The notes under the pieces were generated by a model. It did not search any database. It had not been told where the DNA came from and saw nothing but the letters and a program-made list of their open reading frames with translations. This document shows positions 10,653 through 51,338 of a stretch of 64,000 bases of DNA, one piece after another. The translations under genes and the position numbers were made by a program. How positions within the stretch are numbered: position 1 is the first letter of the stretch; the number at the start of each line of letters is the position of its first letter. Origin of the DNA: Leucoraja ocellata (lineage: Eukaryota); NCBI GenBank assembly GCA_036785375.1, contig JAWMAR010000146.1:1054001-1118000 (forward strand). Reading direction: 5' to 3'.

Positions 10653-10782
10653 TCAGTTTGTTGTTTCTGCTTGGAGGAAGGGTTCACTGATGAAGTTTAA
10701 ACTGTAATTCTGAACATTCGTTGGCAGGATGGTCGCCCCATTTGACACTTGGAATGGGACCAAGCTAGCCCAAGTACCAGGA
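10653..10782 (-). CDS. NFIB: NFIB terminal exon, alternative frame: (S)PGTWASLVPFQVSNGATILPTNVQNYSLNFISEPFLQAETTN-stop
   Basis: The +1 frame is open for 42 codons to TGA at 10655-10653 and is entered when the 89-nt exon is included. It resembles the recalled human NFIB tail PGTWASLVPFQVSNRTPILPANVQNYGLNIIGEPFLQAETSN, which identifies the paralog as NFIB. Confidence 0.9.
10765..10782 (-). CDS. NFIB: NFIB terminal exon, canonical frame: SWYLG-stop
   Basis: Strong acceptor gttttcttttctctgcAG (AG at 10784-10783), then TCC TGG TAC TTG GGC TAG. SWYLG is the known C-terminus of NFIB/NFIA. Confidence 0.93.
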   Translation of the reverse strand, partial: SWYLG

Positions 10783-11427
10783 CTGCAGAGAAAAGAAAAC
10801 AGACGTAAATAAATATAACTTGATTCAGGACTGTAGATCTAAGAATTATCACTTGATTTTGCGAAGTCACGTTAAAAACTCAACTGATAAACCAAATGTT
10901 ACGGCACAATGAAAAAAAATACCAATGTCAGCAATGACAGTTTGAGGCTACACAAATCTCTGATAATCTGGCATGGAGTTGTTTGCAAATCCTGACGATT
11001 TGGCATATGACTTTCTCATTTATCCAGAGTGTAACTCGGAGATCCACATTGCCAGGGGGAAAGGGCTGTGGTCGGAGGGGTCTAGGGTAGGGACTAGACT
11101 GTGGGCGGAGGTGCGGCAAGAGCAGGCGTTGGGGTCTAGAACATCAGAGGTCAAGAGCGTGAGTAAGATAGAGGTGAGGACCATAATGTTTGTACAGTTT
11201 CTGTTCCCTTAAACTCATTGGAGTCAATGGAAAATCAATTATACTACTATCGAACATATAAAAAAGAATGAAATAGCAGTGTGTTCGTATATTTACACGA
11301 GTAACATCCAATAGTCCAGAGAATTTTCAATTAGAAACATTTGCTAGTCTGGCACTACCAAAGTCCTGGGGGTGTTGGCTTATCGGAGTTTTATTGTAGT
11401 CTAATTACAATGTCATTTCAATAGACC

Positions 11428-11530
11428 TCAGTTCTGATGAACGGTTGTTGCTGTGACATACTAACTCTAATTCTCCCTCTGCAGATGCTGCCTGACTGTA
11501 AAACATTCCCAGCATTTTCTGCCATTAAAT
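11428..11530 (+). repeat. Penelope terminal-repeat fragment
   Basis: agttCTGATGA...aactct...gcagatgctgcctga...ccagcattttctg. Confidence 0.6.
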
Positions 11531-12069
11531 CTGTAAGAATAGCTTTCCAAAGGAAGTGACAAACTTCTATAATGAGACATAAGAAACAGCTGACATCATG
11601 TGGCACCTACCTTGCAGGGTTTATAAAAATAAATTACTGGTACCAATTTTGAGATTCTTATATCCTGGAATCATGAATGGTTTGCAACAAAGTATCATTT
11701 GTCCATTATAACTGTGTCAGGCGTTTGAACTCAGAACACAAATCTTAGCACTAAACTCACTGTCTTGCTCTCCTTCAATAATACTGTATCATTTGTTACT
11801 TAAATATATCTCCAAGTCTTCTGTAAATAACATTGTGGTCCATAGCTTAGTTCCTTGTAACAAAGCATTCCCTTCATGCAAATTTCTCCTATCTCTCTTC
11901 ACTTCCGCTAATGAGGATTTGAAATGAAACAACCCTCTTCACTGATTCCCGCCAGTGGCAATAATCATTTTCTACTGTCTCTATTATTTAAAACATCTGT
12001 TTTCTGTATCTTTCTTTCTTCCACTACACATATACTCAGTTCATTAAATCCCGCCACATAACTGTCTTT

Positions 12070-12357
12070 TCCCCAAGGTGGAGGATTCTAAAACTAGAGG
12101 GCATGGGCTTATAGTAAGAGGTTCATTAGGGACCCTCACTTAGAGGGTAGTGTTATTTAGTATGAGCAACCAAAGGAAGCTGTAGAAGTAGTTACAATTA
12201 CAACTTTTAAAACATATTTGGCCAGATCTATGGATTGGAAGGGTTTGGAATTCTATGGGCCAAATGCAGGCAAATGTAGCCCTGTATGCTATCTTGGTCG
12301 GCATGGACTAGGTGGGCTGAAGGATATGTTACCTGCTGCATAGGTCTATGACTCTAT
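12070..12357 (+). mobile_element. Old CR1 3' fragment
   Basis: aaaactagagggcat (KTRGH), CR1 3' UTR and (ctatgact) tail. Confidence 0.8.
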
Positions 12358-13084
12358 GTGCCTACTCACTATTGGAGGTTAGATCTGCACAGGTTTAACT
12401 ATTCCATTCTTTTCAACACTGAGGAATGGTTGTGATGGAGAGAGGCAAGTTTAAAAAAATAATTACATTTATTGAAATGCATTTAATTGCTTCTGGTTTA
12501 CTTTAATTATATTATTTTAATGGTATTTTTTAATTAAGTATGTCTTCAATATTTAAAAAAAAAAGCCATGTGACAAATATGACAGCAGGTTCAGGTGAGA
12601 ACCCTGGCTTAATTGACTGACAAAGCATTTTATTATTCACTAATATTTTATATACTGTAAGAGGTCTTATTCTATCCTTTAATATTGTCTGCTGGGCATT
12701 TTTGAAATTGCTTTTTATTCCCACTAATTGACTTCTTCAACTTACAGTAACCCTCACAATTATTATTAACATTATTAGTTCGAACTTCATTATATCACTC
12801 CTTTTCAGCATCTTTAGTTTTCCGCAATTGCAGATTTTTTGCTGCATCTCCGTTTCAGTTTGGAGCAAGTTTTATTATACTATACAACATGTGCAAGATG
12901 TGCAATTTATTTTTTGATTAATTAAAAATGATTTGTAGCGTTCATACTACTCCTTAACTCACTAAATTTAGAGCAGAAGATATTCTCAGCATTACAAACA
13001 GAAACAGTAGACGGATCTTGACAGCATTTTTAACAGTCTCTGGATATTTCCAATTCAATGGAATATTTTAAAATCAATGGAGTG

Positions 13085-13270
13085 ATGAAAATGCCGCAGG
13101 TACCCAGCAAGTCAGGCAGCTTCTATAAAGGAAGAAACAGTGTCAACATTTCAGTTCTTATGAAGTGTCATTGAGCTGAAATGTTGGCTGTTTTTCTATT
13201 CACAGTTGCTGCTTGCCATGCTGATTATTTCCGGCTGTTTCTGTTTGTGATTCAAATTTCTAAAACCTTT
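13085..13270. repeat. Penelope-derived inverted repeat pair
   Basis: cagcaagtcaggcagc...caacatttcag / ctgaaatgttg...gctgcttgccatgctg. Confidence 0.7.
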
Positions 13271-13509
13271 AGTTTTGTTTTATTCAAATATTTTTTGAAG
13301 TCTAAGGGGCGTGTGTTTATTCTAGCAGAATAAGTTTTATGCATAGCCGAGATCAATAAGGAATTCAAAATCGATGCATTGGAAGGATATTCAGAATTAA
13401 GTTTTTATGTTTTAACAAATACACTGATTATTGAGATGATCAAAATATTCAATATTCATCCATCTGGAAGCTTTTTGTCATAGAGAATATCAGGAAAAAT
13501 ATGTTCCAG

Positions 13510-13850
13510 ATGGAGTACAGTGGCATGGCCATCAGATTCCTAGACCAATAACCCAAGGTCTTGACTAATAGTTTGGAAAAATGGGTTCAAATCCCATTTA
13601 AATACCTATTGTCTGTCATGGTGACATCAAACTTATTGGATTCCACTTCAGAAAGAACTGGTTCATTAATGTCTCTTGCAAGAGAAAATTTGTGAAACTT
13701 ATCTGATCTAGGTTTCAACCAGAACAATATCAATGTGGTTGACCTTCTGAAATGGCCCAATAAGCCATTCAGTTCAAGGGCAATTATGGACAAGCAATAA
13801 ATGCTGGCTTTGCCAGTAACATCAGCATTCCTGTGAAGGTATAAATAAAT
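13510..13850 (+). mobile_element. Old tRNA-derived SINE (unclassified) with a LINE-derived tail
   Basis: B-box-like ggttcaaatccc at ~13584; core ctggttcattaatgtc; tail gggcaattatggacaagcaataaatgctggc. Confidence 0.7.
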
Positions 13851-13858
13851 AGACACCT

Positions 13859-14440
13859 ATAGACAATAGATAATAGATGCAGGAGTAGGTCATTCAGCCC
13901 TCGAGCCAGCAGCGCCATTCAATGTGATCGTGGCTGATCATCCCCAATCAGTACCCCGTTCTGGCCTTCTCCCCTATCCCGACTCCGTTTATCTTTAAAA
14001 GCCCTATCTAGCTCTCTCTTGAATGTATGCAGAGAACCGGCCTACATCGCCCTCTGAGGCAGAGAATTCCACAGACTCACAACCCTCTGTGAGAAAAAGT
14101 GTTTCCTTGTCTCTGTTCTAAATGGCTTACTCCTTATTCGTAAATTGTGGCCTCGGGTTTTGGACTCCCCCAACATCGGGAACATGTTTCCTGCCTCTAG
14201 CATGTCCAAACCCTTAATAATCTTATATGTTTCAATAAGATCCTCTCTCATCCTTCTAAACTCCAGAGTGTACAAGCCCAGCCACTCCAGTCTCTCAGCA
14301 TATGACAGTCCCGCCATCCCGGGAATTAACCTTGTAAACCTACGCTGCACTCCCTCAATAGTAAGAATGTACTTCCTCAAATTAGGGGACCAAACTGTAC
14401 ACAATACTCCAGGTGTGGTCTCACTAGGGCCCTGTATAAT
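13859..14440 (-). mobile_element. CR1 LINE, 5'-truncated
   Basis: ORF 14042-14404 (WSPNLRK...TRGHNLRI); (TTGTCTA)-type tail. Confidence 0.95.
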
Positions 14441-14864
14441 AAGCTGTAAAACTCTTTAACCAAATATTAACGGTGTAATGGTAATGCATTTTTGGTTAAT
14501 GAGTAACAAGACAAGAAACAGATGGAATAATAATTTACTTTAGGAGATGCTGGGGGTATATTTCATACTATAATGAAATGATTTCCAAAAATTGACAGCG
14601 GTGTATATCTATACTTAGTGGATGACCAAACTCTGGCCTGAAGCAGAGAGGTTCCTTGGAAAAGTGTCAAACATAGTTTACAAAGTGATTAGCTCTGTTA
14701 AACACCTAGCTAGTTTTAAAATTTACTCAACCTTAAATTAAATGTTTAGAGAGTAACTCTTGAGACATGAGACATTTACATTTCTGAATACTGTCAGAGT
14801 GCTCTTGGAGAGTGTTTATTCAACCAGACACCATGTGCAGTCATGCATAGGATATTTGAAGGTA

Positions 14865-15637
14865 AACATAGAAACATAGAAATTAGGTGCAGGAGTAGGC
14901 CATTCGGCCCTTCGAGCCTGCACCGCCATTCAATATGATCATGGCTGATCATCCAACTCAGTATCCCGTACCTGCCTTCTCTCCATACCCCCTGATCCCC
15001 TTAGCCACAAGGGCCACATCTAACTCCCTCTTAAATATAGCCAATGAACTGGCCTCAACTACCCTCTGTGGCAGAGAGTTCCAGAGATTCACCACTCTGT
15101 GTGAAAAAAGTTCTTCTCATCTCGGTTTTAAAGGATTTCCCCCTTATCCTTAAGCTGTGACCCCTTGTCCTGGACTTCCCTAATATCGGGAACAATCTTC
15201 CTGCATCTAGCCTGTCCAACCCCTTAAGAATTTGTAAGTTTCTATAAGATCCCCTCTCAATCTCCTAAATTCTAGAGAGTATAAACCAAGTCTATCCAGT
15301 CTTTCTTCATAAGACAGTCCTGACATCCCAGGAATCAGTCTGGTGAACTGTCTCTGCACTCCCTCTATGGCAATAATGCCCTTCGTCAGATTTGGAGACC
15401 AAAACTGTACGCAATACTACAGGTGTGGTCTCACCAAGACCCTGTACAACTGCAGTAGAACCTCCCTGCTCCTATACTCAAATCCTTTTGCAATGAAAGC
15501 TAACATACCATTCGCTTTCTTTACTGCCTGCTGCACCTGCATGCCTACCTTCAATGACTGGTGTACCATGACACCCAGGTCTCACTGCATCTCCCCCTTT
15601 CCCAATCGGCCACCATTTAGATAATAGTCTGCTTTCT
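14865..15637 (-). mobile_element. Young CR1 LINE, 5'-truncated, TSD AGGTA
   Basis: (TTTCTATG)n tail; aggta at 14860-14864 and 15638-15642. Confidence 0.95.
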
Positions 15638-15703
15638 AGGTACTAGGAGAACTTGTTATTCTGGCCAAATTGGAGAGGCCAGGCCACTAAAATTGAGTAA
15701 AGG

Positions 15704-16386
15704 TGTTAATCCTGGCTAAATTGGACCAGCTAGGAATTCAAAATGGGGTTAAGTTTCAAGGTTGCTGGGAGATTTGGTCAAATTGGAATTCCTCTGCAAA
15801 CCTTGTCAATCTGGTGCAAAATGCATAGAATGGATTGGATGGCTGCAAACCAGACATACACCTTGTAAATAGTTGTAAATAATGTTGCAGAGTTTGACTT
15901 TGCCAAGTGTTGATTGGATGAGGTGTTGAGCCTTGTCTGGGTTTTCTGCTAATCAGGGTAAATGTTTCCAAGTTGACTGCATCTCGAAGTCCGTTGCGAA
16001 TACAATGTTTTGAACTATTATATCATTGGGTTAGGGAAATGCCTGTTATGTATGGGGTTAATCGATATCTGTAATTGGGTTATTGAGAGACCACCCCCAT
16101 GTCTTTCGGCCCTTCGATGTCCCGGGACATATAAAAGTCCGCGATCACGAGGCTCAGCGTCGATCTTCTGGAAGAGCGCTCCGCACCGCGTAAACTTCTG
16201 GAGTGCCTCTGTCCGAGCGAGGCCTAGAGGGCTTCAACAGGCAGCACGAGGATCATACCCACGGTGGGATAGGTACGGTGTGTGAACTATGACGCGCTTT
16301 TGGTAAAATAAAATGTAGTTGTTTCAAGTGCTTGATTCAGTGTTATTACTGAAACTGGGGGGAAGCTTAGAAACGAGCAATTAGCA
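15704..16386 (+). mobile_element. Solo LTR (683 bp; ERV or Gypsy type)
   Basis: Ends TGTTAAT...ATTAGCA; 4-bp TSD AAGG (15700-15703 and 16387-16390); TATAAAA at 16130-16136; CpG-rich R-like region; AATAAA at 16307-16312. Confidence 0.85.
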
Positions 16387-16429
16387 AAGGCTTCTGGGCT
16401 GCTAGGCCATTTGGCCATGTTAAAATTTT

Positions 16430-16700
16430 ATTTGGGTGTCTTATTGCTCTTTATTGGCATGACTGTATGGCAAATCATATTCCTCGCATGTTGCAAAACA
16501 TACTTGGCTAGTAAAGTACTATGATGATTATTATGAGTATGAAATTTAATTAGGACAATATTATACATGGAGAAATGCAGCCAAATTGGTGAACAGTTGT
16601 GTGGAGCAAGTGGGTGCGAATGTGGGATTACATAGAACTAGTGTGAATTGGCGATCGATAGTCGGTGGGGTGAAGGGCCTGTTTCTTTGCTATGTCTTAC
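16430..16700 (+). mobile_element. Short LINE 3' remnants (Rex-type tail, then CR1-type tail)
   Basis: ggcatgactgtatggcaaat...(atg/att)n tail; gtgaagggcctgtttctttgctat. Confidence 0.55.
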
Positions 16701-17999
16701 AATTAATAAATCTTCTATGCAACTACATGTTACAAGTTACATTGTTCCTTTCTTAATATGAAATGGATTATCAAATTATGTGCTGCTTTTGATATTCAGT
16801 CAACAAATATAGATCAATGATCATTAAACATCCAATGGAATACCATGCTTACAATCTCTACTGTCTACAAGTGGCACTGTTGTAATCCTGAGCTCCAACA
16901 CATAGATCAGGTACTTGGGAACACCAATACCTTCAACTCACACATATTCCTGGCTTGGGCCCAGGTGAAACATCTTTTGCTGATGCTGAATTATAATTCT
17001 GAAAGTGTCTACTCATACCAGTATGGTAATATGTTTAACATATGAACTACAGGAGGACTGAGTAAACACAAGGGCAAATTAGGGTACTTAAAAATGTTAA
17101 CCTTGACTGTAATGTTCACATCAAAATGTAAGCATTAGATGAGGTAACAAGAGGCCTTGAATATCACTATATAGCGACTATGTAATTTTTTTGGAGAAAT
17201 CTCAAGGCAAAAATGTGCTTGGATATGACTCTAATATTGATTGTCATGAGATGGATTAAACATAAATTAAATTGGATGCATAATTACATGATAAAAGATT
17301 TAACTTTGTTTTTGGATACATAAAGTCATGTCTTCCACAAAATGTGTTTCTGCATGTTTGCCAGCATTTCAAACCATGTCACACAATCTTGGTAATGAAT
17401 CTATTGATGCTTTTGTGACAGCCTATATTTGAATAAGGGTTTTAATATGCCCTTGAACAACATTAGTTGAAACAATCAATGCTAGAATGTTAGATAATAC
17501 GCAAAAGCATTGCTTTGCAGATATAGTACAAGACTATTTTAAAAATTTCATAAGAATTTTACTTGATTCTGTTGCTGGATAGGCTTTCCCAAAAAACGAA
17601 CCAAATTCAAAAATGGAAATTTTGTAATGCAGGGCAATTAAAATGATTAAAATTGATGAGCAAAACACCAGGCACATTTTAGCGACATTAAAAATTGACA
17701 GTGTTAAACACCAGACTGCAACTTTGAAGGATAAGTGGGCTATAAATATTATAAAAGATCATTAACAGATAATGCTTTTGAAGAAAATTATTCATATTGG
17801 CCTTCATTAAATGAGACTGTGGACACATACCAGATGCAATCAGTTTTGGCTCAGCATCCACAAAATACATTGAGGTCATAAAACATATGTCTGGAGGAAA
17901 CTTGAAGGAAAAATTACTTCTGGACACATGAATCGGATGGCATAAACCACAGTATTCTCAGATTGATAAATGCACATATTATACACAATAAAATGGGAG

Positions 18000-18342
18000 C
18001 AATAACAGGCCACTTGGCCCCTGTCTCACAATACCTGCCCTGCTGTTTGTGATCATCATGGCTGGTATAGCCCAGGACCTAATCCTCTTCTAAAGCACTT
18101 CCACATAGTCTATAACTCTCTGGTCATTCGAAAGTTTATCTACCTCCTGTTTTAACATGTCTGTTGATCTAGTCTCCACATCCCTTTAGGTATAGAGGTA
18201 TACAGGAATCACCACGCTCCATGAGAAGAAATTCCTATCCACCTCAGTTTTAAATTATTGCACCTTATGCCCCCTAATACAAGTCTCACGCACAGGTGGA
18301 AATATTTCAAAATCTACCTTGCCAGACCTTCTATGTTTCAAT
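18000..18342 (-). mobile_element. Old CR1 3' fragment
   Basis: Degenerate match to reverse-strand CR1 (gagaagaaattcct..cacctcagttttaaat). Confidence 0.7.
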
Positions 18343-18345
18343 AAC

Positions 18346-18875
18346 GGCGGCATGGTGGCATAGCTGTAGAGCTACTGCCTTAAAGCCCTGTCCCACTGTA
18401 CGAGTATATTCAAGACCTCTCCCGAGCTCGTGGAACCACATAGAATGAACGTAGCGGGTACGTCGGAGCTCGGGGACGTCTCTTAGCGGCTCGTAACGCT
18501 AACGGCAGGTACTTGGGAAACGCGGTAAGCTCGGGAAAACTCGTGAAGATTTTCAACTTGTTGAAAAATGTCCACGAGAACCCCGAGTTCCTGCGAACGG
18601 CCATTACCGTAAATCTCGGAGTTCGAATCAGGGAAAACTCGGGAGAACTCTTGAATGAACTCGTACAGTGGGACAGGGCGATTACAGAGACCTCGGTTCG
18701 AACCTGACGACGGGTGCTGTCTGTACCAAGTTTGTACATTCTCCCCGTGACCACGTGGGTTTACTCCGAGATCTTCGGTTTCCACCCACACTCCAAAGAC
18801 ATACAGGTTTGTAGGTTAATTGGTAAATTGTCCCTAGTGTGTGTAAGATAGTGTTAGTGTGTGCTGATTGCTGGC
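18346..18875 (+). mobile_element. HE1/V-SINE interrupted by a MITE
   Basis: A-box region ggtggcatagctgtag; B-box ggttcgaacc at 18695-18704; V-domain gtttgtacattctccccgtgaccacgtgggttt. Confidence 0.9.
18383..18681. mobile_element. PIF/Harbinger-type MITE (299 bp)
   Basis: TIR gccctgtcccactgtacgag / ctcgtacagtgggacagggc, extending imperfectly to ~40 bp; TTA TSD at 18380-18382 and 18682-18684. Confidence 0.9.
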
Positions 18876-20309
18876 TTCCTCCTCTAAGCTATTAATAGTA
18901 AATCATTGAAGATGATGTGCTTATCGTTAAGGCAATCTTCTAATCATGTCACTGATGCTTGAGGCACCCAAGTAGCAATAGATTAGAAGATGTACTAGAT
19001 AATAACTCACAGGGTGGACACTAACACAAAAGTATTTCTTACTCCAATATTTATAAAAATTGTAGGATTACCCGAACCACCATTGGGAGGAATATATCCA
19101 AAGGTCATTTGTGGGATGTCAGAAATGTTACTTTAAAGGAGATGAGCTCAGAATGAATAGTTAATATTGATGTAGGTGCAACCGGTCATACTTCAACAAT
19201 CCAGATTTCACACATCACAAAATCCAGCCTCACTTATTTAGATATTTAAAAAAAATAACATTTGATAATGTTCTGCCAGTTGTGTTTTTATATATTATAA
19301 AGATACTCAGCAAACTTAAATTTGGTAACCATACTGAAAACAAACTATAAAGCAACGTGACTATAAATCGAATTAGGTTATGATTCTATGATAATTTAAG
19401 GAAAACATTTAATATGTTTTCCTTATATTCATGCACATCCATGACATGTTTAACAGAACAGATTGAGTATTAGGATATTTGTTGTCACTTCAGAAGGAAC
19501 CAATCCTTTTTTGTATCTCTAGTTGACATAACCCAAATTATAATGTACTACATTAAAACATTTTAATATCATAAAAATACATGCATTATTGATGAACCTA
19601 CCTAAAAATCAAAAATAATTGCCTGCATTGATCAAATCGTAATTTAAAGGATTTAAAAAAAAATCAATAACAGTTCTATTGCACAAGTAAATTTACCCAC
19701 ATTGTTCAAGTTTAAAGTCGACTGACTTACTGACAAATTTCAGGAAATAGAACACTGCAGTGATTCTTCTTCAGATTCAATGCACATATTTGATTAGATA
19801 TACAAATTTCCACTATGGGTTTAAAATGGGGAAAACAAAGACATTTCATAACTTCTGAAAACTAAGAATCTAAAAGATAAAATGTAAGTTTGAAATAAAT
19901 TAATGTCAAGTTCTAGGATTGCCATTCTAAACTGAAGAACCAAGGGCATGTTATCCACGGGTCTAACGTTTCTATTCTCCAATGACTAATAATACAATGT
20001 TATTTCTTGCGCTGAAATATTGTAAATGTGGTTTGAATAACTAAAGTTCTAATCTATTGGGAATCCTTGACTGTACACTGGCAGTTCTCACCTCCATCTG
20101 GGGAAAATTAGGTAGTGGTTGGACATTGACTGGTTTGCTATTCTGAAATAAATCGTGGCGTTTTCAAAGAACTAAAATACGCCGATTTATATCTTCTGAA
20201 ATAAGACGTTTTAAATTCAACCAGATATGCATTATTTACTTACTTCCTGATTGTGAAGGAGAATGGATATTGCCAAAAATTGTTAGTCTATCTCATTAAC
20301 ATTCATATT

Positions 20310-20440
20310 GTATAGGAAGGGACTGCAGATACCGGTTTAAACTGAAGATAGACGCAAAATGCTGGAATAGCTCAGCGGGACAGGCAGCATCTCTGGAGAG
20401 ATGGAATGGGTGATATTATGGGTCAAGACCTTCAGACTAT
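20310..20440 (-). repeat. Penelope terminal-repeat fragment
   Basis: caaaatgctggaatagctcagcgggacaggcagcatctctggag. Confidence 0.8.
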
Positions 20441-20814
20441 TGTGATTGCTCAAGATACAATACTTAATGGTATCCAACTCTAAATCTCTGACCAATAATC
20501 TATTTTTGACAAAAACCTGATTGTATAAAATTTGATTATGTTTCCCAGCCATAATTTTTTAATTTTTAAAATAATTTAAAAGATTTTTATCATCATCCAG
20601 TTTCTATCTTAATCATATGTGTATGTTCTAACTTTTATTTAATGTTCTGCAAAAGCAATTACAAAAAATAATTAGACGTTTCGCTTTTTCCCTAATCCAC
20701 AGTCTATGAAAATTCTTCACGGTAATTGGCAGGTCAGTGGGTTCGTTGGAATTGTTACTGCTGAGTAGCAAGAAAGCCCTTGAAATAGCACCGAAGATCA
20801 ACTGATGTTGAAAA

Positions 20815-20910
20815 AAGGGTAGACACAAAATGCTGGAGAAACTCAGCGGGTCAGGTAGCATCTCTGGAGAGAAGGAATGGGTGACATTTTGGGTCTAGAC
20901 CCTTCTTCAG
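20815..20910 (-). repeat. Penelope terminal-repeat fragment with a hammerhead-like core
   Basis: Minus strand CTGAAGA-a-gggtc-ta-gaccc-AAAA-tgtc. Confidence 0.8.
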
Positions 20911-21239
20911 AAAGGGGTAACCCATACCAGGAAAACACTAGATACCTATGGGAGCTTCCTTCAGTGTGAGCAGTGTGATTTGCTACTGCGACCCTGACTG
21001 CTAAATCTATAAGTAAATGATTAAAAAATGATTGTGATGACATAATGAAAACAAAATGACCAAAGCACAATAAATCGTCAACATTTATGATGGATGGGGA
21101 TTATGATTCGTATACAGCAGTGAACTGTTGCTAGATTTGAAAATGTAAAACTGTTTGTTTGGAATGTCTCGCATTATTTATGGCAGTGATCAGCTAAAAT
21201 AGATGCAAATTTGTTTTCAAAAGCAAGACTAAATAGTTA

Positions 21240-21415
21240 ACTGTGGGACAAGCAGCATCTCTGGAGAAAAGGAATGGGGATGTTTTGGGTCAGACTCTCT
21301 GGGCCTGAAACGTTACCAATTCCTTTTCTCCAGAGATGCTGCTTGTCCTGCTGAGTCACTCCAGCATTTTGTATCTACCTTCTGTGTAAACCAGCATCTG
21401 CAATTCCTTCCTACA
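21240..21415. repeat. Penelope-derived hairpin (inverted terminal repeats)
   Basis: ggacaagcagcatctctggagaaaaggaat / attccttttctccagagatgctgcttgtcc form a perfect 30-bp inverted repeat. Confidence 0.9.
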
Positions 21416-21539
21416 TTAAATCATTAATCATAATTGCTTTTGTATCAGTGTAGACTTAGAGATTAAATGTTTACGTCGTATAAGAAGTCTACAAAGTCTG
21501 TAGAGATTTAAATTAGCTTCTGTAACTGATTACACATTT

Positions 21540-21715
21540 GAATCTTTATAATTACGACTTTTAAAAGATATTTGACAGATTTATGGAAAGAAAGGGTTTT
21601 GAGGGTTATGAGCCAAATGCAGGAAAATGTAATTAGCCCAATATGCTAACTTGGTTGGCATGGACAAGCTGGGTGGAAGGTCTGCTTCCTTGCTGAACAG
21701 CTCTATGACTCTAAC
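21540..21715 (+). mobile_element. Old CR1 3' end
   Basis: FKRYLDRFM-like coding sequence and ctctatgactcta tail. Confidence 0.75.
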
Positions 21716-21759
21716 TCGAATGTCAGACACCTAGAAAACAAGAGTTGTGTATTGGCATA

Positions 21760-22563: not shown

Positions 22564-22581
22564 CACACACACACACACACA
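22564..22581. repeat. (CA)n microsatellite
   Basis: Direct reading of the sequence. Confidence 0.9.
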
Positions 22582-37682: not shown

Positions 37683-37709
37683 ACAGGGATATGGATCATG
37701 TGCAGGCAT

Positions 37710-39404: not shown

Positions 39405-40780
39405 ACATAAGAGTTAGGAAAAAGACAATCGGAATAGGTCATACTTTTCACTAAGACCATGGTTGCCCTTATTAATCTCAACTCCAATTTCCAGCCAAAC
39501 TCCAGAAACTAGAATTCTTCCAACGGTCCAAAAATACATCAGTCTCAGCCTTGTTTCTGCCCAGCTGTTATCAGGCAACTGAACTATCCTACAAACAACC
39601 AGAGAGGTGGCCTTAGCTACTATTTTTATAATTGAAGACCCTGGACTATATTTAATCGGACTATACTAGACTTTATCTTGTACTAAGCGTTATTCTTTTC
39701 ATCATGTATCTGTACACTGTGGACGGCTCGATTGTAATCTTGTATAGACTTTCCGCTGACTGGTTAGCATGCGACAAAAAGATTTGTCCTGTACCTTGGT
39801 AGACGTGCCATTAAAGTAAACCAAACCAAACATAATTAATGAGTGAGCATACACAGCCCTAAGCAGAGTAACTTCTCAAGATTTATAACTCCCTGAGAGA
39901 AGGATTATTTTTCTCATCTCAGTCTTAAACAGGCCACTCTTTATCAATCAATGCTCTCTAGTTCTAGATTTCCCTGCAATGAAAATATCAAAGGATCTCT
40001 AAATTAATTTCTCAAAAGTTCATGTGATTGTCAGTAACAAGCTCACTCTGAATCTTAATTGTCTCACTTGGTCACTTCTCATTCCTCTAAATTCCATTCT
40101 ATTTAATCTTTTTTCATGAGACGACTTCTTATCCCCAGGATCAATCCAGTGAATCTTCTCTGCAACACCATCTGAGAAATGTATCCTTCCTTAAATAAGA
40201 CCAAATCAGCATGTAAAACTCCAAGCAGGATCTCATTGAAGTTCTGTGCAGTTGTAGCAAGACTTCTCTATTTTTTTACTCCAGGCCCCTAATAATAAAG
40301 AACAATGTTCCATTTGATTTCCTGACACTTGCAGCACCACTTCCTATACTTTCCTGTGATTTTTGCACAAGGACAACTTGACACCTATGAACACCTGCAT
40401 TCCCAGGCGATTTAAATAACATTTTGTTTTTCTAATCTTCCTACCAAAATTGATTACCTCATTTTTCCCCTGTAATATTCTCCATTTTCCATCATTTTGT
40501 CCCAACATTAAAATTAATATTCCTTTGCAAACTTTTTATGTCGTCTTCCCACCTTATTTTAGTAACCATCTTTAGAAACTCTAATGCAATATCCCCTAGT
40601 GAAGACAATAATATAAATTACAATTAGCTGTCCTCCCAAAACTGGTCCTTATGGTCACCAATTGTTACACCTTGGTATTGTTTGTCATGTGAAAAGATGG
40701 TCTTTACTGAACCTTTTATCTTGCGTGGCACCTTATTGAATTAGCTACCATTCATTGTTTCTACATCTATTGTGCTGCGT
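39405..40780 (-). mobile_element. Old CR1 LINE interrupted by a Rex-type 3' fragment (~39555-39830, +)
   Basis: Reverse CR1 motifs (atccccaggatcaatccagtgaatcttctctgca; cgtggcaccttattgaa). The insert ccagctgttatcaggcaactgaac matches 42481-42505. Confidence 0.75.
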
Positions 40781-41721
40781 CTAAACACACTACAACCATT
40801 GTTTCTCCTCACAGAGTTCTAATCGGTTTATCAAAAATAAATTCCCTTTCATAGAGCTTAACTGCTCACTTGATAGAAGGTGATGAATTATTTGCTTTTA
40901 CTCCCTTTTCTTGCCATTCTCTGACGAAGTCCCCAAGAAATTGTTTCAAGAAAATGTCCCAAATCCATAACTTCATTCTCACAGGTATATTTGCCAATTG
41001 GATTTACGTAATCGATCTGAAGGTCAACAGCGCCCATCATGAAAGTCCCCTTCATCTGTTAATTAACATAAATGCCTTTGGTTTTTAGGTAGATCTTGGA
41101 AAAGATTATGGGATTTACACTTCATAGTAGATTTTTATTCCAGATTATTTAATTAAATATTTAACTTCCCCAGCTCCTCAGTAAATTTTGAACTCCCCAG
41201 ATTATCCCCAGATAATTAATTAATGTTTCTGCATTAAAACTAATCACCATGTTGCTATTTCAATAAGTATCCAAGATTGACCAATATCACAGAAAAAGGA
41301 GCATAATCACTCTTAACCATCCAGAGCAACACAGATCATATACAATCACATATTCATTTTGACCTACCCTGTGTTTGTCACCACTGTCATTTAAAACCAT
41401 CCATTGCTCGTCCTGCTGAGTTTCTCCAGCCTTTTCAGTCATTATTCACGTCACTTTGTCCCGGTTATATAACATGAGCATTTATTCCTCCTTTTTCCCC
41501 CCAGCCTACATTACATTAATGGTCCCATGTGGCGTTGTCATTTTCTTAAATCCGACATCAATCAGGATTATCATGGGGGTGACAATGCTGTGCATTATAC
41601 AGTGGCTTTCTGCAGATCAGGTTTTCTATGGAGCTAAATGACCAGCTGGTACATTGGTCCACCATAGGTACTCTTTGCTTCTGGCTCAGTAAGATCACAA
41701 TTACAAATGGTTTGTCATGAC

Positions 41722-41954
41722 TCACAGAGAGTGTTGAGTCTGTGGAATTCTCAGCCTCAGAGGGCCGTGGAGGCAGGTTCTCTGGACGCTTTCAAGAGAG
41801 AGCTAGATAGGGTTCTTAAAAATAGCGGAGTCAGGGGATATGGGGAGAAGGCAGGAAAGGGGTACTGATATGGGATGATCAGCCATGATCACATTGAATG
41901 GCGGTGCTGGCTCGAAGGGCCGAATGGCCTACTCCTGCACCTATTGTCTATTGT
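41722..41954 (+). mobile_element. CR1 3' end
   Basis: SQRVLSLWNSQPQRAVEAGSLDAFKRELDR; (TTGTCTA) tail. Confidence 0.93.
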
Positions 41955-42673
41955 CATTGAGACGTACAGCACCGATACAGGCCTTTCTGCATACCATGCC
42001 CATGCTGATCTTTTTGCCCTACACTGATTCCATTTGCCCGCATTGGAGTCACATGCTTCAATGCCTTCCGAGGAGGCAACAGGGTTTGTGAGGAGGGGTG
42101 ATCTTCGATGATCTATTTCATCCACTCATTATCACCAATGACTCATCCTACGCTCCCTCTTCTGCATCAAAAAGCCCTCTGGGGTGGTTGCGTGTGTGGT
42201 CTCATGGATACTTCAAGTGTTGCTGCTAAGGGAAGATTTTCAATGGAACAGATCCGACTGGAGAATTTTGGGATTCTGCTGTGTTTGTATAAGGAACTGG
42301 TGGGCAACAACCAACCTCCCTTCCACCAGCTCCATTTATACCTCACGCTGCCTCGGCAAGGCCAGCAGCATAATCTAAGGTGAGTCGCACCCTGGCCGCT
42401 CCCCCTTCTCCCCTCTCACACCAGACAAAAGGTATAGAAATGTGGAAACACACACATCCAGATTGATGGACAGCTTCTAACCAGCTGTTATCAAGCAACT
42501 GAATCTTCCTACCACAACTTGAGAGCAGTGCCGAACTACTGTCTACCTCTTTGGTCACCCTTTGACTATCCTTGATCATACTTTGCTGGCTTTAGCTTGC
42601 ACTAAACGGTATTCCCTTGTCATATGTCTATGCACTGTAAATAATCATGTATTATCTTTCTGCTGACTGGATA

Positions 42674-43116
42674 CAGCCTTCTCCCCATATCCCCTGACTC
42701 CGCTATTTTTAAGAGCCCTATCTAGCTCTCTCTTGAAAGCATCTAGAGAACCTGCCTCCACCGCCCTCTGAGGTACAGGATACTGAGTTGGATGATCAGC
42801 CATGATCATACTGAATGGCGGTGCAGGCTCGAAGGGCCGAATGGCCTACTCCTACACCCAAGAGCGGAACTCGCTATCAAAACATGGAGGGGACGGGGGA
42901 CACAACTTTTTGGCGGCCACGCGCGCATGCGCACACTCACACACACGCGCGAGGCTTCGGAGGCTCAATCCAGTGCTAAAAGCGGAGATTTTAAAATCGC
43001 GATTTCAAAAACTTGAGGGGATGTCCCCCACCTCTCAAAACATGGGGGGGACGTGTCCCCTCTGCCCCACCCCCCCGGTTTTCCGCCCCTGTCTACACCT
43101 ATTTTCTATGTTTCTA
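42674..43116 (+). mobile_element. CR1 insertion with 5' inversion, TSD TGGATA
   Basis: 42676-42770 is reverse-strand CR1 and 42770 onward is forward CR1 3' UTR and tail. tggata at 42668-42673 and 43117-43122. Confidence 0.85.
42859..43091. mobile_element. hAT-type MITE (233 bp)
   Basis: TIR caagagcggaa / ttccgcccctg (9 of 11 match); 8-bp TSD cctacacc (42851-42858) / tctacacc (43092-43099). Confidence 0.85.
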
Positions 43117-43169
43117 TGGATAGCCCGCAACAAAAGCTTTTCACTGTACCTCGTTCACGTGACAGTAAC

Positions 43170-44147
43170 ATGTGGTGGGACTCATCAGCGGAGATGACGA
43201 ATCAATGTACAGGGAGGAAGTAAAACAACTAGTGGACTGGTGCGACAAAAATAATCTAGAATTAAATGTCGACAAAACGAAGGAGATTGTTGTCGACTTC
43301 AGGAGGGCGCAGCCAAAGCATACACCCCTCAACATCAGTGGCACTGCGGTGGAGAGAGTGGAGAGCATAATGTTCCTCAGTGTGCAAATTACAGACAGTC
43401 TCACCTGGTCCAGGAACACCACAGGGACCGTCAAACGGGCCCATCAGCGACTGCACTTCCTGAGGAAACTAAAACAGGCCTTACTCCCCACCAACATCCT
43501 CAGGACTTTCTACAGGGGTACGGTGGAGTCTGTACTCACGTACTGCATAAATACGTGGTACTCCACCTGCAACTGCTCGGACAGGAAGGCTCTGCAGAAG
43601 GTAGTGAGGGGCGCAGAGAGGATCATTGGCGTCTCCCTACCCTCGGTACAAGAACTGTTCCAGAGCCGCTGTCTGAAAAAAGCTCAGAGAATTGCTAAGG
43701 ACAAACTGCACCCCCTCCACATACACCTGGATCTCCTGCCATCAGGCAAGAGATATCGAAGCATCAAAGCCCGGACTACAAGACTGCTAAACAGCTTCCT
43801 ACCACAGGCTGTGAGGCTGCTAAACAGTCACTCTGTACTCACAGTCACTTGATTCTGCGGCTGGCACGGACACTTTAATAACTGGCACTGGCCACTCAAA
43901 TCAGCTGCCCCGGACATTTTTATGATTGGTTTATTGTATTTTAACGTTGTGTTTTACCTGCCTTTAACTATTTATTTATACTGTTCCATCAGGGACTGGA
44001 TTGTTTTTAGTGTTATTATGTGTGAAACGTTTTAAATTTCATGTGCGATGCTCCGCTATTCCCTGGGAAACGTCTTTTCATTTTGCACTGTACGACTGTT
44101 GCTTGCAAGATGACAATAAAGGTTGATTGATTGATTGATTGATTGAT
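43170..44147 (+). mobile_element. Young Rex1/Babar LINE (element B), 5'-truncated
   Basis: Uninterrupted 226-aa RT C-terminal ORF 43172-43852 (VVGLISGDDE...LELNVDKTKEIVVDFR...GKRYRSIKARTTRLLNSFLPQAVRLLN); AATAAA and (TTGA)n tail. Confidence 0.92.
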
Positions 44148-45269
44148 TAAACTAAACTGAAACTGTAAGCCAATGAGTATAGGGAAGAGGGGACAAGTAG
44201 TTCATGCATAGGGATGCAGAGGTTAAATGATGGGGCCTACCATAGTTAATGCTTATCATGAGTTTAGGCCTAGTTCTAATGCCCAAATATATTGCCCAAA
44301 TACATGCCACACCTTCCTTAGGAAGTTTGAGGGAATATTTGAAACTTAATTCACAACTTCCATGCATTCAGTGTTATGTTTCAATCATTATGTGTAAGTG
44401 TTATAACTTCCTCCTTTACAGTGATCATCTTCTCCTGTTCCAAATCGTGCTATGCAAACTATGAGGCGCACAGTAAATTGCATAATGGCACATTCCTGGA
44501 CTGACGGTACAATTGACCAGGAATTAGTTCACTCAATTACTTCATTTTAAACGATCACGGCCGTAACCAGAAATCAGCAGTTCTGAGAAATGGCTTCAAT
44601 CAGCAACCTATGAACACCCCACCTACTCGAAAAGAGGTTGTGTATCCAGACCTCTAACCTTTTAAAGGCTATCTGAATACATTTACATTTGCTCATTTGA
44701 ATTTCATGAAGATATTATAATTTCTCCAGAAATTGTATAACCTGTTGTTATCTTTCTGTTCTTGACTCCACGTGTTCATATATTGGGATGTGGGGAAAGC
44801 CGTAAATACCACATTTACAGCGAGCCCCCAGTGCATTGTGCAAAGAGTGGTGAGCCATCATTGTCAGTCAGAGTAGTCCACAGTTCTGGTAAGTGGGAAG
44901 TTGCAGGAATGATGAAAGAGCTGTGTTGCTTTTCCAAGTCAGAATGGTGTGTGGCTTGGATGAGACTGTGCAAGTGCTGGTGTATTCTATGTCCCTGCTT
45001 TTTATTACATCTAAAATCTTCACCTGCTCCAAACCTTTGAATCCTCCTTTGTGTCAGATGCTATGCTAAACTCCTGTATGTTGGCCTCCAAAAGTGGTTT
45101 CAGTTTTGGACACTGATAATTTGTAAATGGGTTCACAAGAAGTCATTTGCCCTCTCATGCCATTTAATAATTGCATAACTACACCATCTGTGTCAATTTC
45201 TGAAACAAATTACACACCCTGCACTTTTAGCAGGTATGGCTGTTATTTTACAGTGTAAAATACAGGGGT

Positions 45270-45436
45270 CCAACAACAAGACCCGGAGTGCGGCCTTGCA
45301 CCACCCGGCGCGGCGTTAATGGCTGCGGTACAATTACCATCGCACGCCGGGGGCTTTTACTCTGACATCGGGAGGGGAATGGGGAGTGCAGGGGAGGGAT
45401 AAGTTTTTGCCTTCCATCACAGCGAGGAGGAGATGC
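45270..45436 (+). repeat. CpG-rich repeat fragment abutting the 5' truncation of a CR1
   Basis: Abrupt GC/CpG-rich block; resembles a LINE UTR but is unclassified. Confidence 0.4.
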
Positions 45437-46597
45437 ATTCAACAAGGTCCCACATAAGAGATAAGTATACAGACTTAAAGCACACGGTATTGGGGGTTCA
45501 GTATTGATGTGGATAGAGAACTGGTTGGCAGACAGGAAGCAAAGAGTAGGAGTGAACGGGTCCTTTTCACAATGGCAGGCAGTGACTAGTGGGGTACCGC
45601 AAGGCTCAGTTCTGGGACCCCAGCTATTTACGATATATATTAATGATTTGGACAAGGGAATTGAAGGCAACATCTCCAAGTTTGCGGATGACACGAAGCT
45701 GGGGGGCAGTGTTAGCTGTGAGGAGGATGCTAGGAGGCTGCAAGGTGACTTGGATAGGCTGAGTGAGTAGGCAAATGCTTGGCAGATGCAGTATAATGTG
45801 GATAAATGTGAGGTTATCCACTTTGGTGGCAAAAATAGGAAAGTAGATTATTATCTAAATGGTTGCCGATTAGGAAAGGGGGAGACCTGGGTGCCATGGT
45901 ACACCAGTCATTAAAAGTAGGCATGCAGGTGCAGCAGGCAGTGAAGAAGGCGAATGGTATGTTAGCATTCATAGCAAAATGATTTGAGTATAGGAGCAGG
46001 GAGGTTCTACTGCAGGGAAGTTCTACTGCAGTTGTACAGGGTCTTAGTGAGACCACACCTGGAGTATTGCGTACAGTTTTGGTCTCCTAATCTGAGGAAA
46101 TTCTTGCCATAGAGGTAGTACAGAGAAGGTTCACCAGACTGATTCCTGGGATGTCAGGACTTTCATATGAAGAAAGACTGGATAGACTCGGCTTGTACTC
46201 GCTATAATTTAGAAGATTGAGGGGGGATCTTATAGAAACTTACAAAATTCTTAAGGGGTTGGACAGGCTAGATGCAGGAAGATTGTTCCCGATGTTGGGG
46301 AAGTCCAGAACAAGGGGTCACAGTTTAAGGATAAGGGGGAAATCTTTTAGGATCAAGATTAGGAAAACTTTTTTCACACAGAGAGTGGTGAATCTCTGGA
46401 ATTCTCTGCCGCAGAAGGTAGTTGAGGCCAGTTCATTGGCTATATTTAAGAGGGAGTTAGATGTGGCCCTTGTGGCTAAAGGGATCAGGGGGTATGGAGA
46501 GAAGGCAGCTACAGGATACTGAGTTGGATGATCAGCCATGATCATATTGAATGGCGGTGCAGGCTCGAAGGGCCGAATGGCCTACTCCTGCACCTAT
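45437..46597 (+). mobile_element. Young CR1 LINE, 5'-truncated
   Basis: [10 protein letters not shown] and [11 protein letters not shown]; C-terminal ORF 46217-46522; 16-bp internal duplication near 45999-46030. Confidence 0.96.
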
Positions 46598-46880
46598 TAA
46601 AGAAGAAAGAAGAAAATCACACCCTGAAGCACATAATTGCTCTGAAACAAAGTTGGCTACAAAAGATAGAAGTGGCAATTCCCACTTATGTGGCTGGTAC
46701 CAACTTATCAGAAAGTCCAGACAGCAAGAGTTTGACAAAATCCTTTCTTTTAATCATTATCGAATCATTCTTGGAAGCACTGTGGTTGTGGTCTGAAGGA
46801 TAAAACAATATTTCATCAGGAAATATTACCCAACAACATTCAATGATAATTATCTTATGTCACATAAGCAGAAATATACC

Positions 46881-47335
46881 CATATAACATATAACCATAT
46901 AACAATTACAGCACGGAAACAGGCCATCTCGGCCCTACAAGTCCGTGCCGAACAAATTTTTTTCCCCTTTAGTCCCACCTGCCTGCACTCATACCATAAC
47001 CCTCCATTCCCTTCTCATCCATATGCCTATCCAATTTATTTTTAAATGATACCAATGAACCTGCCTCCACCACATTCCACTGGAAGCTCATTCCACACCG
47101 CTACCACTCTCTGCGTAAAGAAGTTCCCCCTCATATTACCCCTAAACTTCTGTCCCTTAATTCTGAAGTCATGTCCTCTTGTTTGAATCTTCCCTATTCT
47201 CAAAGGGAAAAGCTTGTCCACATCAACTCTGTCTATCCCTCTCATCATTTTAAAGACCTCTATCAGGTCCCCCCTTAACCTTCTGCGCTCCAGAGAATAA
47301 AGACCTAACTTATTCAACCTATCTCTGTAACTTAG
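46881..47335 (-). mobile_element. CR1 3' end, same subfamily as 27558-29063
   Basis: LGLYSLERRRLRGDLIEVFKMMRGIDRVDVD; (GTTATAT)n tail. Confidence 0.95.
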
Positions 47336-50300
47336 CTTAACATAGCTTAGCTTAACTTATGCAACTTTAAATGTTCTTATTCACTCAGGAATCTATTATG
47401 GAAGAGGGGAAAGATATTTCATATCACATCGGAAAAAAGGCCAAAAAACCTTTGTGGGAAAATCAGTTGAGAAAGTAGTACTTCATGAGAAAGTTTTTTT
47501 TTTAATCTATTCTCTAGCAAAAGATAAAAATAAATCAAAACATGTCATTCATTATTCTTTTATATAAAGTGTAAAATGCCAATCTTGGGACAGCTAGGAT
47601 CTTAGCCACATTGTTAATTTTAAAGGCAGTGCTTCAAGTTCACATCTTTAAAATGAATCATGTGATCAAAGCCAACAGAAAATAAACTTACAAAAATGGG
47701 AGCAAAGAGCAAAATAAACCAGTTTATCAAAGATGTCAGAACAAAACTATACAATCCATGGTAAAGCCTCTTCTATTCATAATTCAACAGTGTTGTTCAG
47801 AGAACATAAGAACACTCTTTTCTGATACTGAATACTCAAGAACGTAAAGGTTCACTATTCAGTGTTTTCGCAGTCTCGACTGCAGCTAAAGCTTCTGTCG
47901 TTAAGTGAACATAAACAGTTTCTTTTTACTAATTCTCCAATGTAAGATAATTATTTATGCATGCAGGGTTTTCTTAAGTGTTTACTTTCAATCTCATTAT
48001 TGCATTATGTTTGCAAAGGGAAAGTGAAGTTTCCACTAATAAGCTTTTGTGATATTTGTGTTACTTATTTTCCCAGTCATATTCCTCAATTCTCAGAAAA
48101 TCATTTGATAACGGTGTGCTGTGTGGTGGGGGCCACTTGCACATTCTCATTTGTTTCCAGCTGGGACAACTATAATTTAATTTGCTTAAAGACTAAATTT
48201 GCTGGATTCTCAAGGTGGCCACTACTGCGACTGGAATCTTTAATGAGCGTGAAGGGTAATCTGCATCTCAATTGTTGTACCGCTAAATTTTTCCACTGAT
48301 ATTTTCTTCTGTAATCCATTTCCCAGGCAAAGTTAGTAACTGAAAGATTCCACCTTGAGAACAGTCTTCACACAGTGCCGGGCAACGTTGGTGTTGTGTT
48401 TCTGAATTATGTTGCATGCTCCTCCTATCTTCTCCCCCACACAGCCTCTGCCAAAGTCATCTGACAGGAAACTAAAGATTAAATTTGTCCGACCGAAGAG
48501 AACAAAGAGCCCACAGAGCAGTGAACCAGCTTACTGCAGAGTCCAAACTTTCTAATCCACCCCAAATCTTGGGATTTTCAGGAAAGTGTTAATGCAAAGT
48601 TGTTTCAATGCTCTACTATTTTGTCTGTGGATCATCTTTCGACACTTTAGCATTTACACCCAGCATTTCCATAAAGGTTAACTTGAAGCACCAAACATAA
48701 TCATGTGGAAAATAGACTTTATTGATTGCTATGGTCTATTGTTCCCCTTTTTTAAGTCCCTGTAGTTCAAGTTCAATCTGGAATTACATCATGTCTGGTT
48801 TCCCTTGGTTACCAGACAGCTTGCGACGTGACCATGATTAGAGAGAAACAAATATTCATCTTCATGTATCAACTCCTCTTCTACTCAAATATAAACTTCT
48901 TTTCCACAAGGACACCTGAAGTATGCACTGTAATCAATTTATAGATCATAGTCTAAATTATATTATCTAATGGCTTCCTAATGGATAATTAATCCATTTA
49001 CTTTCATATGCATATCTAGGATTCAGGAATCAAAATTCCTGAGAAGAGCAACTACAAAATTACACATACTTCTGTGAACATTTGATGGATTCAGCTACAT
49101 TAATCATGTAGGATATTTTCTAAGTACAGCGATTCTTGGCAGTATTTTTTTTTAAACAATCATTATTAATTAGTTTTTCTTCACACAAAGAATCAACAGT
49201 TTTTCCTGTCGCACTTTCTACGAAGTCAAAAGTTTTTGATAATGTTCTGCAAATCTAAATTGCAGTACTAAGGAAAATAAAGGCAGGGATAAGTGATTAA
49301 GTCTGCATTTCTGTTCCCAAAGACTTTGATTCAAGAGTACTAAGCAATCTTTTGAGTCTTTCACATCCAACTATTGAGTTCAACATGCTCCTCCAGAGCA
49401 CAGCCTAAAACAGCTGCTTCACTGTAAGTTTAACGTAAGTTACTGCAGTAACATAAACTTATGGCAGGAAGTGCTGACCCAGTGTATTTGCCAGGATAGT
49501 CAAACAGAAACATTTTTTTTTCAAGGAAAAGAAATATGAGTATTGATGCTACATGCAAAAGGATTAACTATTTGAGTACTGAATTTCATTTTTTCATTTG
49601 GCTGGGCAGATTTCTCCTTCCCATAACACAATATCTATGAGGTAACCAGTCACTGAACAGTCAGAAACCTAGAGTGTAACAACAGGCTATGAAACGTCTG
49701 ACAATAAAATTATACACTGGGTGTGCTGCCTAATCATATTTGTATCTATGATTTAGAAGAAACTTACATCTGGGCCTAGAATCTGCAAATACTCCTAACA
49801 CATTCTCACACATTTGGCTTCCTTTAAACAAAACTGCCTCACAGCTTAACTGTCACAGAACCATGCTAAAATGCACATTTTTTTTTAGAAATGTGATCGC
49901 ACCTGCAAACAAAAACAAACACATCTAATGCACAGTTAAATCACCTCAAGTTATTTGAAATATGCCTTTAAAAAACATACATTGCCATCATTGTATAACA
50001 TTGCACATACATTTTACACTAAATAGGCACAATAAACATAATCTGGCCTGTGATTCTATCTATCTTTTATAATTAGCAATCTAAATGAAAAACAAAGTTG
50101 TCCTAAATTTTCAAAATGCTGAATTAGTAACTGTTCTTTAAATATTAATTTGAATATACATGATTCTTAATAAACAAAAGAGAAAAATGCAAGAGCCAAT
50201 AGTGTTGTGCAAAGTATAGTCTTAATGAACATTTCTACACAAGTCTCCCTACTTTACTGGCTGGGGTCTAACTTTGCACACACTTAACAAAAAGTAATCA

Positions 50301-51249
50301 CGTCTCTTAAAAAAAAAATCGGAATTGCAACTTTTAAGACTGCAGTATCCCTCTTTGCTGCCCTGCATCTGTCCAATTACAGTATCGTTAAATGTCACCG
50401 TTGCTCAATAAGGAGCTTAATTTTGTTTTCACAAAGTTGCATTTTGCGCATTCTATTGCAAGTACCTGTATATTTAGAAATAGTCCAGTATTTTAACCAC
50501 ACAGTCATTCAGTGTTTGCCTTGAGACAATATTCTGAGATGTGATATGTTACTTCTTTTCTATATAATTCACCAAGTCACTTGGTTCATACACTAGCTTT
50601 GACTGGGTCAATGCACATTTTGCTCCCAGAACTACTGCTTTGCAATTGACTAAGTCCTGGGATATGCATGCATTTGCTTGCCTTTCCTCTCTAACCAGCA
50701 GCCCTAGGAGGTTGCTGGTACCCCCTGTGTTATAGGGCAGCTGAGATAAGAGGTTCTGCCAGTTGGGACTGGGACCTATGAGTCACAAACCTGAAGCTTC
50801 ACATACTGGTGTACCAGCGCACTGTGCCACTTCACTGCAGAGCAAAATAATTATTAACCAAAAATATATTTTTTCAAAATAAATTATAAATGAAAAATGA
50901 AACAAGCATTTCATTGTCCTGAGTATCAAACATTAAGGGGTTAAATTTTCTTCTGTAAAAACTTTCCTTTAACACAGCTCCAGTCTTCTTACAGTAATCT
51001 GAACAGATGTTTTACATTTAATTCTCTGAAGAGGATGGCAGCCATGTTTACATCGAGGAGTGTGGGAAAATACAAGCAGTTTAACATTTCCAAATCCACC
51101 ATACTGAAAATACTAGAAAACGCTGAAGTAGAAACTGACTCTTGATTTAAACCAAATGATAACAATCTTAATGCTGGACAACAAGAAGAGATAATGCAGC
51201 TTCATTTTTGATATGCATGTGTAGATTTTAGAAATAGTTAAAATATTAC

Positions 51250-51338
51250 CTTTGCCAAGCAATTCCCAATGTATCGTCACTGGCACTGGGGTATAAATGC
51301 CTGCCGTTTTGATTCATGGTCCAGTCACAAATCCTCAG
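51250..51338 (-). CDS. NFIB: NFIB alternative (cassette) coding exon, 89 nt, LRICDWTMNQNGRHLYPSASDDTLGIAWQ + 2 nt of a Ser codon
   Basis: Minus strand reads ttcaattgacAG|CTGAGGATTTGT...TGGCAAAG|GTaata, open in phase 0. The peptide closely matches the recalled human NFIB long-isoform segment LRICDWTMNQNGRHLYPSTSEDTLGITWQS. The final AG joins the first T of the terminal exon to give AGT (Ser) and an open frame. Confidence 0.93.

Follow-up and report, generated by a model that had tools for sequence, protein, structure and literature searches.

Introduction

The dual-coding regions of the NFIA, NFIB, NFIC and NFIX family are older than the duplication of these genes and have been kept in jawed vertebrates, as set out in a preprint whose text also describes dual coding of NFIA validated via a frame-changing exon (Tress et al., bioRxiv 10.64898/2026.05.28.727796). 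The dual coding described there is ancient and derived from splicing, as in the skate NFIB locus examined here; the main text of the preprint specifies no NFIB exon pair and makes no mention of ray-finned fishes or teleosts. In the portion drawn on here, a 2025 review counts what the NFI splice isoforms do, and how their C-terminal regions are structured, as open (PMC13637464).

The switch between two NFIB tails is already known, since human and skate gene records list it. A long tail is carried by the human RefSeq isoforms 9, 16, 22 and 26 (NP_001356391.1, NP_001356398.1, NP_001356404.1 and NP_001356408.1), and a short tail ending in SWYLG by isoforms 2 and 27 (NP_001177667.1 and NP_001356409.1). 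The original prediction for this locus held that the long tail is usually treated as 3' UTR; that view does not stand, as no fewer than four human NP_ isoforms, together with many chondrichthyan models, have the tail as coding sequence. The human long tail holds four tryptic peptides.

The terminal exon shared by the two tails is also the NFIB part of MYB-NFIB fusions, as had been proposed: in the sections available from two reviews, the minimal NFIB part of these fusions is SWYLG from the last exon (PMC6721700, PMC7910556). In tumour T349, according to the passage describing it, MYB exons 1-8 are joined to NFIB exons 11-12, contributing 73 amino acids (PMC7016764), which agrees in size with the cassette plus last exon described below. 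The upstream partner in these fusions is MYB, and the parts of the sources cited here, including a further one on adenoid cystic carcinoma (PMC5595986), credit their effect mainly to enhancer hijacking and not to the tail.

Results

Exon anatomy of the skate NFIB C-terminus

We analysed a 64,000-nt stretch of a Leucoraja ocellata contig (JAWMAR010000146.1, positions 1,054,001 to 1,118,000; hereafter the window). Ray NFIB exons map in order on this contig, at 97% in the DNA-binding exon, and the naming of the locus as NFIB is supported both by CTF/NF-I exons lying in order on one contig and by best matches that are themselves named NFIB. The frame is set by upstream exons located past the end of the window, and the window holds a cassette exon and the terminal exon (Table 1).

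The cassette contributes 29 codons and two bases of a junction serine. It had been predicted that skipping this exon gives the five-residue tail SWYLG, and that with the cassette included the terminal exon is read in the +1 frame, for a 72-residue tail. Both predictions were confirmed by the sequence: frame 0 reads SWYLG and a stop codon at the very start of the terminal exon, and the cassette has intact AG/GT ends and leads into a +1 frame that stays open to its TGA, so that the 72 residues are made up of the 29 cassette codons, the junction serine and 42 terminal-exon codons. In skate, the doubly coding part amounts to 18 nt only; the remaining 10653-10764 is coding in a single frame, being 3' UTR for the isoform with the other tail. 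The assembly contains a second copy of the locus, on a different contig (C584), in which the cassette and the terminal-exon coding pieces are letter-identical to the window and an 889-nt stretch around the cassette has five differences.

Table 1 Features of the NFIB locus in the window
Feature	Position	Strand	Description
NFIB cassette exon	51338-51250	minus	89 nt, length mod 3 = 2; AG/GT flanks
NFIB terminal exon start	10782	minus	Preceded by a pyrimidine tract and CAG
Frame 0 of terminal exon: SWYLG then TAG	10782-10765	minus	Sole part shared, in different frames, by the 5-aa and 72-aa tails
+1 frame of terminal exon, 42 codons + stop	10653-10781	minus	Second half of the 72-aa tail; TGA at 10655-10653
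Third frame of terminal exon, 27 codons + stop	10697-10780	minus	Reachable with both the 86-nt exon and the cassette skipped
Homologue of the ray-finned 32-aa frame-0 tail, closed in frame 0 in skate	10684-10764	minus	Comparison with bichir

The human isoforms have the same cassette, the same junction and the same two tails, and differ from skate by the drift of 11 residues only. Alignment of the 72-residue tail with human NP_001356391.1 gave 61 identical residues (85%, in line with the original prediction), with 26/29 in the cassette and 34/42 in the last exon. As in the cases treated by Tress et al., the skate locus has an alternative exon with canonical AG/GT ends and a length that is no multiple of three upstream of a shared terminal exon. 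Both NFIB frames are in use in all jawed vertebrates sampled, but their stops are not preserved throughout, the frame-0 stop being kept in cartilaginous fishes and tetrapods only.

Exon combinations and tail outcome

The neighbouring upstream exons measure 188 nt, 142 or 169 nt (from two donors) and 86 nt. Because the cassette is one of three neighbouring optional exons that each change the frame (142/169, 86 and 89 nt), the outcome for the tail depends on the combination of exons used. Among the 12 combinations that we tabulated, three lead to SWYLG, four to the long frame, two to the third frame and three to an early stop. The long frame is reached via the cassette in three cases and via the 86-nt exon alone in one, a route absent from all 423 proteins that we fetched. 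The early stops fall 75-85 nt before the last junction in three of the six combinations that contain the cassette; the other three, in which the cassette is entered in phase, are free of such a stop. The stop brought in by a poison exon is expected to precede the last junction by more than 50-55 nt if it is to trigger nonsense-mediated decay. By this measure, the earlier statement that the cassette is not a junction-dependent poison exon is right for the three in-phase combinations and would fail for the three out-of-phase ones, if these are made. The cassette would act as a tail switch on in-phase entry and as a decay trigger on out-of-phase entry.

In the 274 proteins that carry the cassette peptide, the cassette is entered from the 86-nt exon in 223, from the 188-nt exon in 49 and otherwise in two. 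Entry is in phase in 272 of these 274 models, a proportion to be read with the proviso that models of decayed transcripts would be missing from protein collections.

Conservation and selection on the long frame

The match of the long tail is not a chance one. At E <= 0.001, its 42-residue part was matched by 230 of 232 candidates; records with a name among the 120 listed matches were NFIB or nuclear factor 1, the others being unnamed gene models of jawed vertebrates. The tail of 27 orthologues was 84-86% identical to that of skate, higher than the identity in residues 191-430 (65%) and lower than that in the DNA-binding part (90%), with an upward bias from the choice of these proteins by their tail. 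In 238 of 241 proteins, any difference in the length of the cassette is a multiple of one codon, and the other three carry an extra piece; only in-frame products can be counted in such a comparison.

A scan of metagenomes provided a homologous DNA stretch, L012, that is amniote-like by its peptide (at least one locus among the 592 pattern matches listed). After the short stop, the window and L012 differ at 26 positions, of which 19 are third, six are first and one is a second position of the +1 frame (binomial p 4e-5). The corresponding pN was 0.10 and pS 0.71, for a pN/pS near 0.14, all from a single pair whose synonymous sites are near saturation. The likeness of the two sequences stops at the long stop codon. 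A codon-level check of the +1 frame over 10653-10764 had been proposed with the original prediction, and its outcome is the one expected of a coding frame. Judged from the one pair compared, the long frame is under protein-level selection beyond the overlap, and the differences follow the pattern of a protein-coding frame rather than that of a UTR element.

These results bear on two other accounts of the locus. The cassette might be mainly a dosage switch, useful because out-of-phase entry leads to an early stop and hence to nonsense-mediated decay, with the long tail as a by-product. The early stops in half of the cassette-containing combinations fit this account, as does a TGCATG hexamer 65 nt upstream of the cassette acceptor, which we take to be of the RBFOX type and which is often found near regulated exons. 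A by-product frame, however, would lack the third-position bias and the low pN/pS seen after the short stop, and the near-universal in-phase entry also speaks against this account, although decayed transcripts would escape protein collections; we consider it improbable. More improbable again is that 10653-10764 is conserved at the level of RNA or DNA, as a 3' UTR element or splice enhancer in which the open +1 frame is incidental. The first 99 nt of the terminal exon are nearly invariant at all codon positions in ray-finned fishes, from bichir to cichlid, as such an element would be. Against L012, in contrast, synonymous sites are near saturated while the protein is kept, the likeness ends just where the long frame does, and no stable RNA fold was found in the terminal exon (z +1.06). 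For the skate lineage, the window-L012 comparison already contradicts conservation of this kind.

Transcript evidence for the two forms

The skip form exists as a spliced molecule in skate. A transcript search over 10200-11000 recovered a spliced contig, from one of four runs, that joins the 3' end of the 86-nt exon to the terminal-exon acceptor, ~58 kb apart; the other three runs, two of raw RNA reads and one a contig set, were blank on the terminal exon. In all, 20 runs contained the 3' region, their RNA status not being on record (14 were guessed to be RNA). Of the two junctions that were to be compared, skipping was thus seen directly, and inclusion is known from the models of other species and from assembly products. 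The cassette and long tail are present together in 264 of the 423 fetched proteins, most of which are computed gene models, and the carriers include Amblyraja, Leucoraja, Rhinoraja, ray, shark and Callorhinchus models. The inclusion junction is also contained in three short Logan assembly products (P0057, P0065 and P0072). Models ending in SWYLG include those of Callorhinchus and Chiloscyllium. Together, the models from related skates, sharks and humans suggest that the cassette is included in L. ocellata as well.

Least probable of all is an account in which L. ocellata has kept the exon but lost its inclusion, so that the SWYLG form alone is made: the sole spliced contig seen does skip the cassette, but a single contig shows the dominant path only, the splice sites and frame are intact in both assembly copies, and the cassette and terminal-exon peptide pieces are identical to those of Amblyraja and Leucoraja models that include the cassette.

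Third frame, paralogues and domain searches

An ending in the third frame of the terminal exon was found in one of the 423 fetched proteins, a turtle model, with 15 of 27 residues identical to the window, as against ~86% in the +1 frame. We therefore set aside triple coding of the exon, and its third frame is probably not selected.

The skate genome contains two paralogous NFI terminal exons, L008 (on C6) and L009 (on C143). Like that of NFIB, both have an AG acceptor and begin with SWYLG and a stop; unlike that of NFIB, they lack the 42-codon +1 frame. L009 has a 24-codon third frame, presumably an alternative NFIA tail. An ancestral short tail to which gene-specific alternative frames were added fits these data, because both paralogous exons begin with SWYLG and a stop. 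Searches of the skate genome found no paralogous cassette, with no match better than E 6 beyond the locus and its second copy, and no paralogous copies of the tail. Neither paralogous nor jawless-fish copies of the tail were present among 23 matches in a 50%-identity library; one of the 23, P0385, is an unrelated repeat protein.

The Pfam CTF_NFI profile ends just before the cassette (at residue 509 of 581), and no Pfam family matched the cassette or the terminal-exon piece. The PDB held no solved structural relative of the tail, and the atlas matches of the tail scored below 0.9 and were to NFI clusters only.

A longer frame-0 tail in ray-finned fishes

According to the original prediction, both frames have been kept since the gnathostome ancestor. 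Both tails do occur in cartilaginous fishes and in tetrapods, but the SWYLG stop is gone in ray-finned fishes. A WYLG motif lies near the end of 108 of the 423 fetched proteins: 34 stop there, all of them from tetrapods and cartilaginous fishes, and 74, all from ray-finned fishes, read on in frame 0 to a total of 32 or 33 residues. Searches that used this tail as the query supplied many of the 74, but nine of nine such members also read on in the four clusters that had long-tail proteins as seeds (bichir, sturgeons, mormyrids and smelts).

Pairing the two tails in 11 taxa fixed the overlap except for four bases, and the two frames were mutually consistent in 11 of 11; all are gene models, the two cichlid tails belong to different but related species, and the comparison was made after one inserted codon had been taken out. 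Compared with bichir, the other 10 ray-finned taxa have 0-2 differences at the 27 wobble sites of the +1 frame, and 24-26 of their 26 frame-0 residues are unchanged. The corresponding wobble differences are 11 for skate versus bichir, 13 for L012 versus bichir and 15 for skate versus L012, with 10-13 of the 26 frame-0 residues kept; for the window and bichir, 13/26 residues match in frame 0 and 22/27 in the +1 frame. Random synonymous recoding of the +1 frame kept a mean of 8.8 of the 26 frame-0 residues, with a maximum of 18 in 20000 trials. Past the frame-0 stop, the teleost +1 frame drifts, and 6 to 10 of its 10 residues there match bichir.

We hypothesize, with a modest lean in its favour, that a single TAG-to-GAG change in the ray-finned ancestor removed the SWYLG stop common to the NFI family and overprinted a 32-residue tail on the frame of the 72-residue tail, that both have been selected since, freezing ~99 nt, and that in skates and tetrapods the overlap has stayed at its ancestral 18 nt. 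The near-frozen overlap would be explained equally well, in place of selection on two frames, by an RNA element with its origin in the ray-finned lineage. Under the overprinting hypothesis, the window likely shows the ancestral state. No description of the ray-finned overlap was found in the literature searched, which lay outside subscription journals, or in the preprint text available. The ray-finned frame-0 tail is the only part of this work that we did not find in print, and it lies outside the skate genome.

Discussion

We are confident, if short of certain, that the locus contains an ancient NFIB cassette whose in-phase inclusion would shift the last exon to the +1 frame and yield a selected 72-residue tail, likely an unfolded, motif-bearing extension that alters cofactor binding or turnover. 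In this model, the cassette would first be spliced in after an in-phase upstream exon. The shared last exon would then be read in the +1 frame in place of the SWYLG frame, and the resulting tail would form an unfolded extension that bears short binding motifs and changes the cofactor binding or turnover of NFIB. We infer this biochemical role because the tail sits behind the CTF/NF-I transcription modulation region and has a low-charge, aromatic and aliphatic make-up; on sequence grounds, the tail may serve as such a motif-bearing extension. Inclusion of the cassette may itself be regulated.

By itself, the switch adds little, as reference annotations and a genome-wide survey already include it. 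Its importance is modest: the dosage and isoforms of NFIB are relevant to adenoid cystic carcinoma and to the development of brain and lung, and strong selection on the 72-residue tail means that the tail merits an isoform-specific test. The ray-finned overprint, if true, would matter more than the switch. It would be a dated natural case in which a long overlapping frame arose within a transcription factor of vertebrates, and would offer a clean comparison, within the same exon, of lineages with and without a second long frame.

A second NFIB tail in ray-finned fish

The stop codon after SWYLG, which ends the NFIB tail in the skate when the 89-nt cassette exon is skipped, is absent from NFIB of ray-finned fish (proteins P0280, P0297, P0219, P0266 and their relatives). 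In these fish, the same skip frame (frame 0 of the last exon) instead encodes a 32–33-aa tail that overlaps the long frame, the +1 frame read when the cassette is included. This overlapping tail is nearly invariant from bichir to percomorphs. Salmonids and percomorphs have in common a one-codon insertion that leaves both frames intact.

Features of the skate locus, its paralogue and its homologues
Feature	Location	Strand	Basis or description
Ray-finned fish skip-frame tail	homologue of window 10684–10782	minus	P0280, P0297, P0219, P0266 and relatives
NFIB 3′ UTR	window about 8280–10652	minus	skip-form spliced transcript contig
L009, paralogous NFI terminal exon	G000:C143:4026760 onward		SWYLG and stop, plus third frame
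TGCATG hexamer	window 51398–51403	minus	65 nt upstream of cassette acceptor
Intronic stretch matching P0384 exon	window 48670–48768	minus	2.5 kb downstream of cassette

The skate locus and its paralogues

The spliced contig runs about 1.9 kb past window position 10200, which gives the NFIB 3′ UTR a minimum length of about 2.4 kb, counted from the long-frame stop. The skate assembly holds two near-identical NFIB loci (contigs C146 and C584), and on C258 another NFI DNA-binding exon is present in two copies on opposite strands, 118 kb apart; both doublings probably represent uncollapsed haplotypes or assembly duplication. Among the paralogous terminal exons, the third frame of L009 is open for 24 codons and is probably the alternative NFIA tail, and that of L008 (contig C6) spans 17 codons.

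Upstream of the cassette lie two single candidate motifs: the TGCATG hexamer, which is of RBFOX type, and a branch-point-like CTGAT 21 nt from the acceptor. The intronic stretch downstream matches P0384, an unnamed tetrapod-like NFIB gene model that uses the homologous sequence as an exon (33 residues matched, 70%, E 1.6e-11). The skate sequence has a stop in the frame that P0384 reads, and this stretch is likely a conserved non-coding element.

NFIB variants in other vertebrates

Gene models of rabbit, one frog, one carp and catfishes (P0105, P0172, P0176, P0196, P0217) insert an extra lineage-specific exon after the cassette and ahead of the last exon; in the fish models, this exon puts the last exon back in frame 0. 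The long tail is more diverged in 'NFIB-like' models of several birds (P0110, P0390, P0392, P0394–P0396), which suggests that these birds carry a second, relaxed copy.
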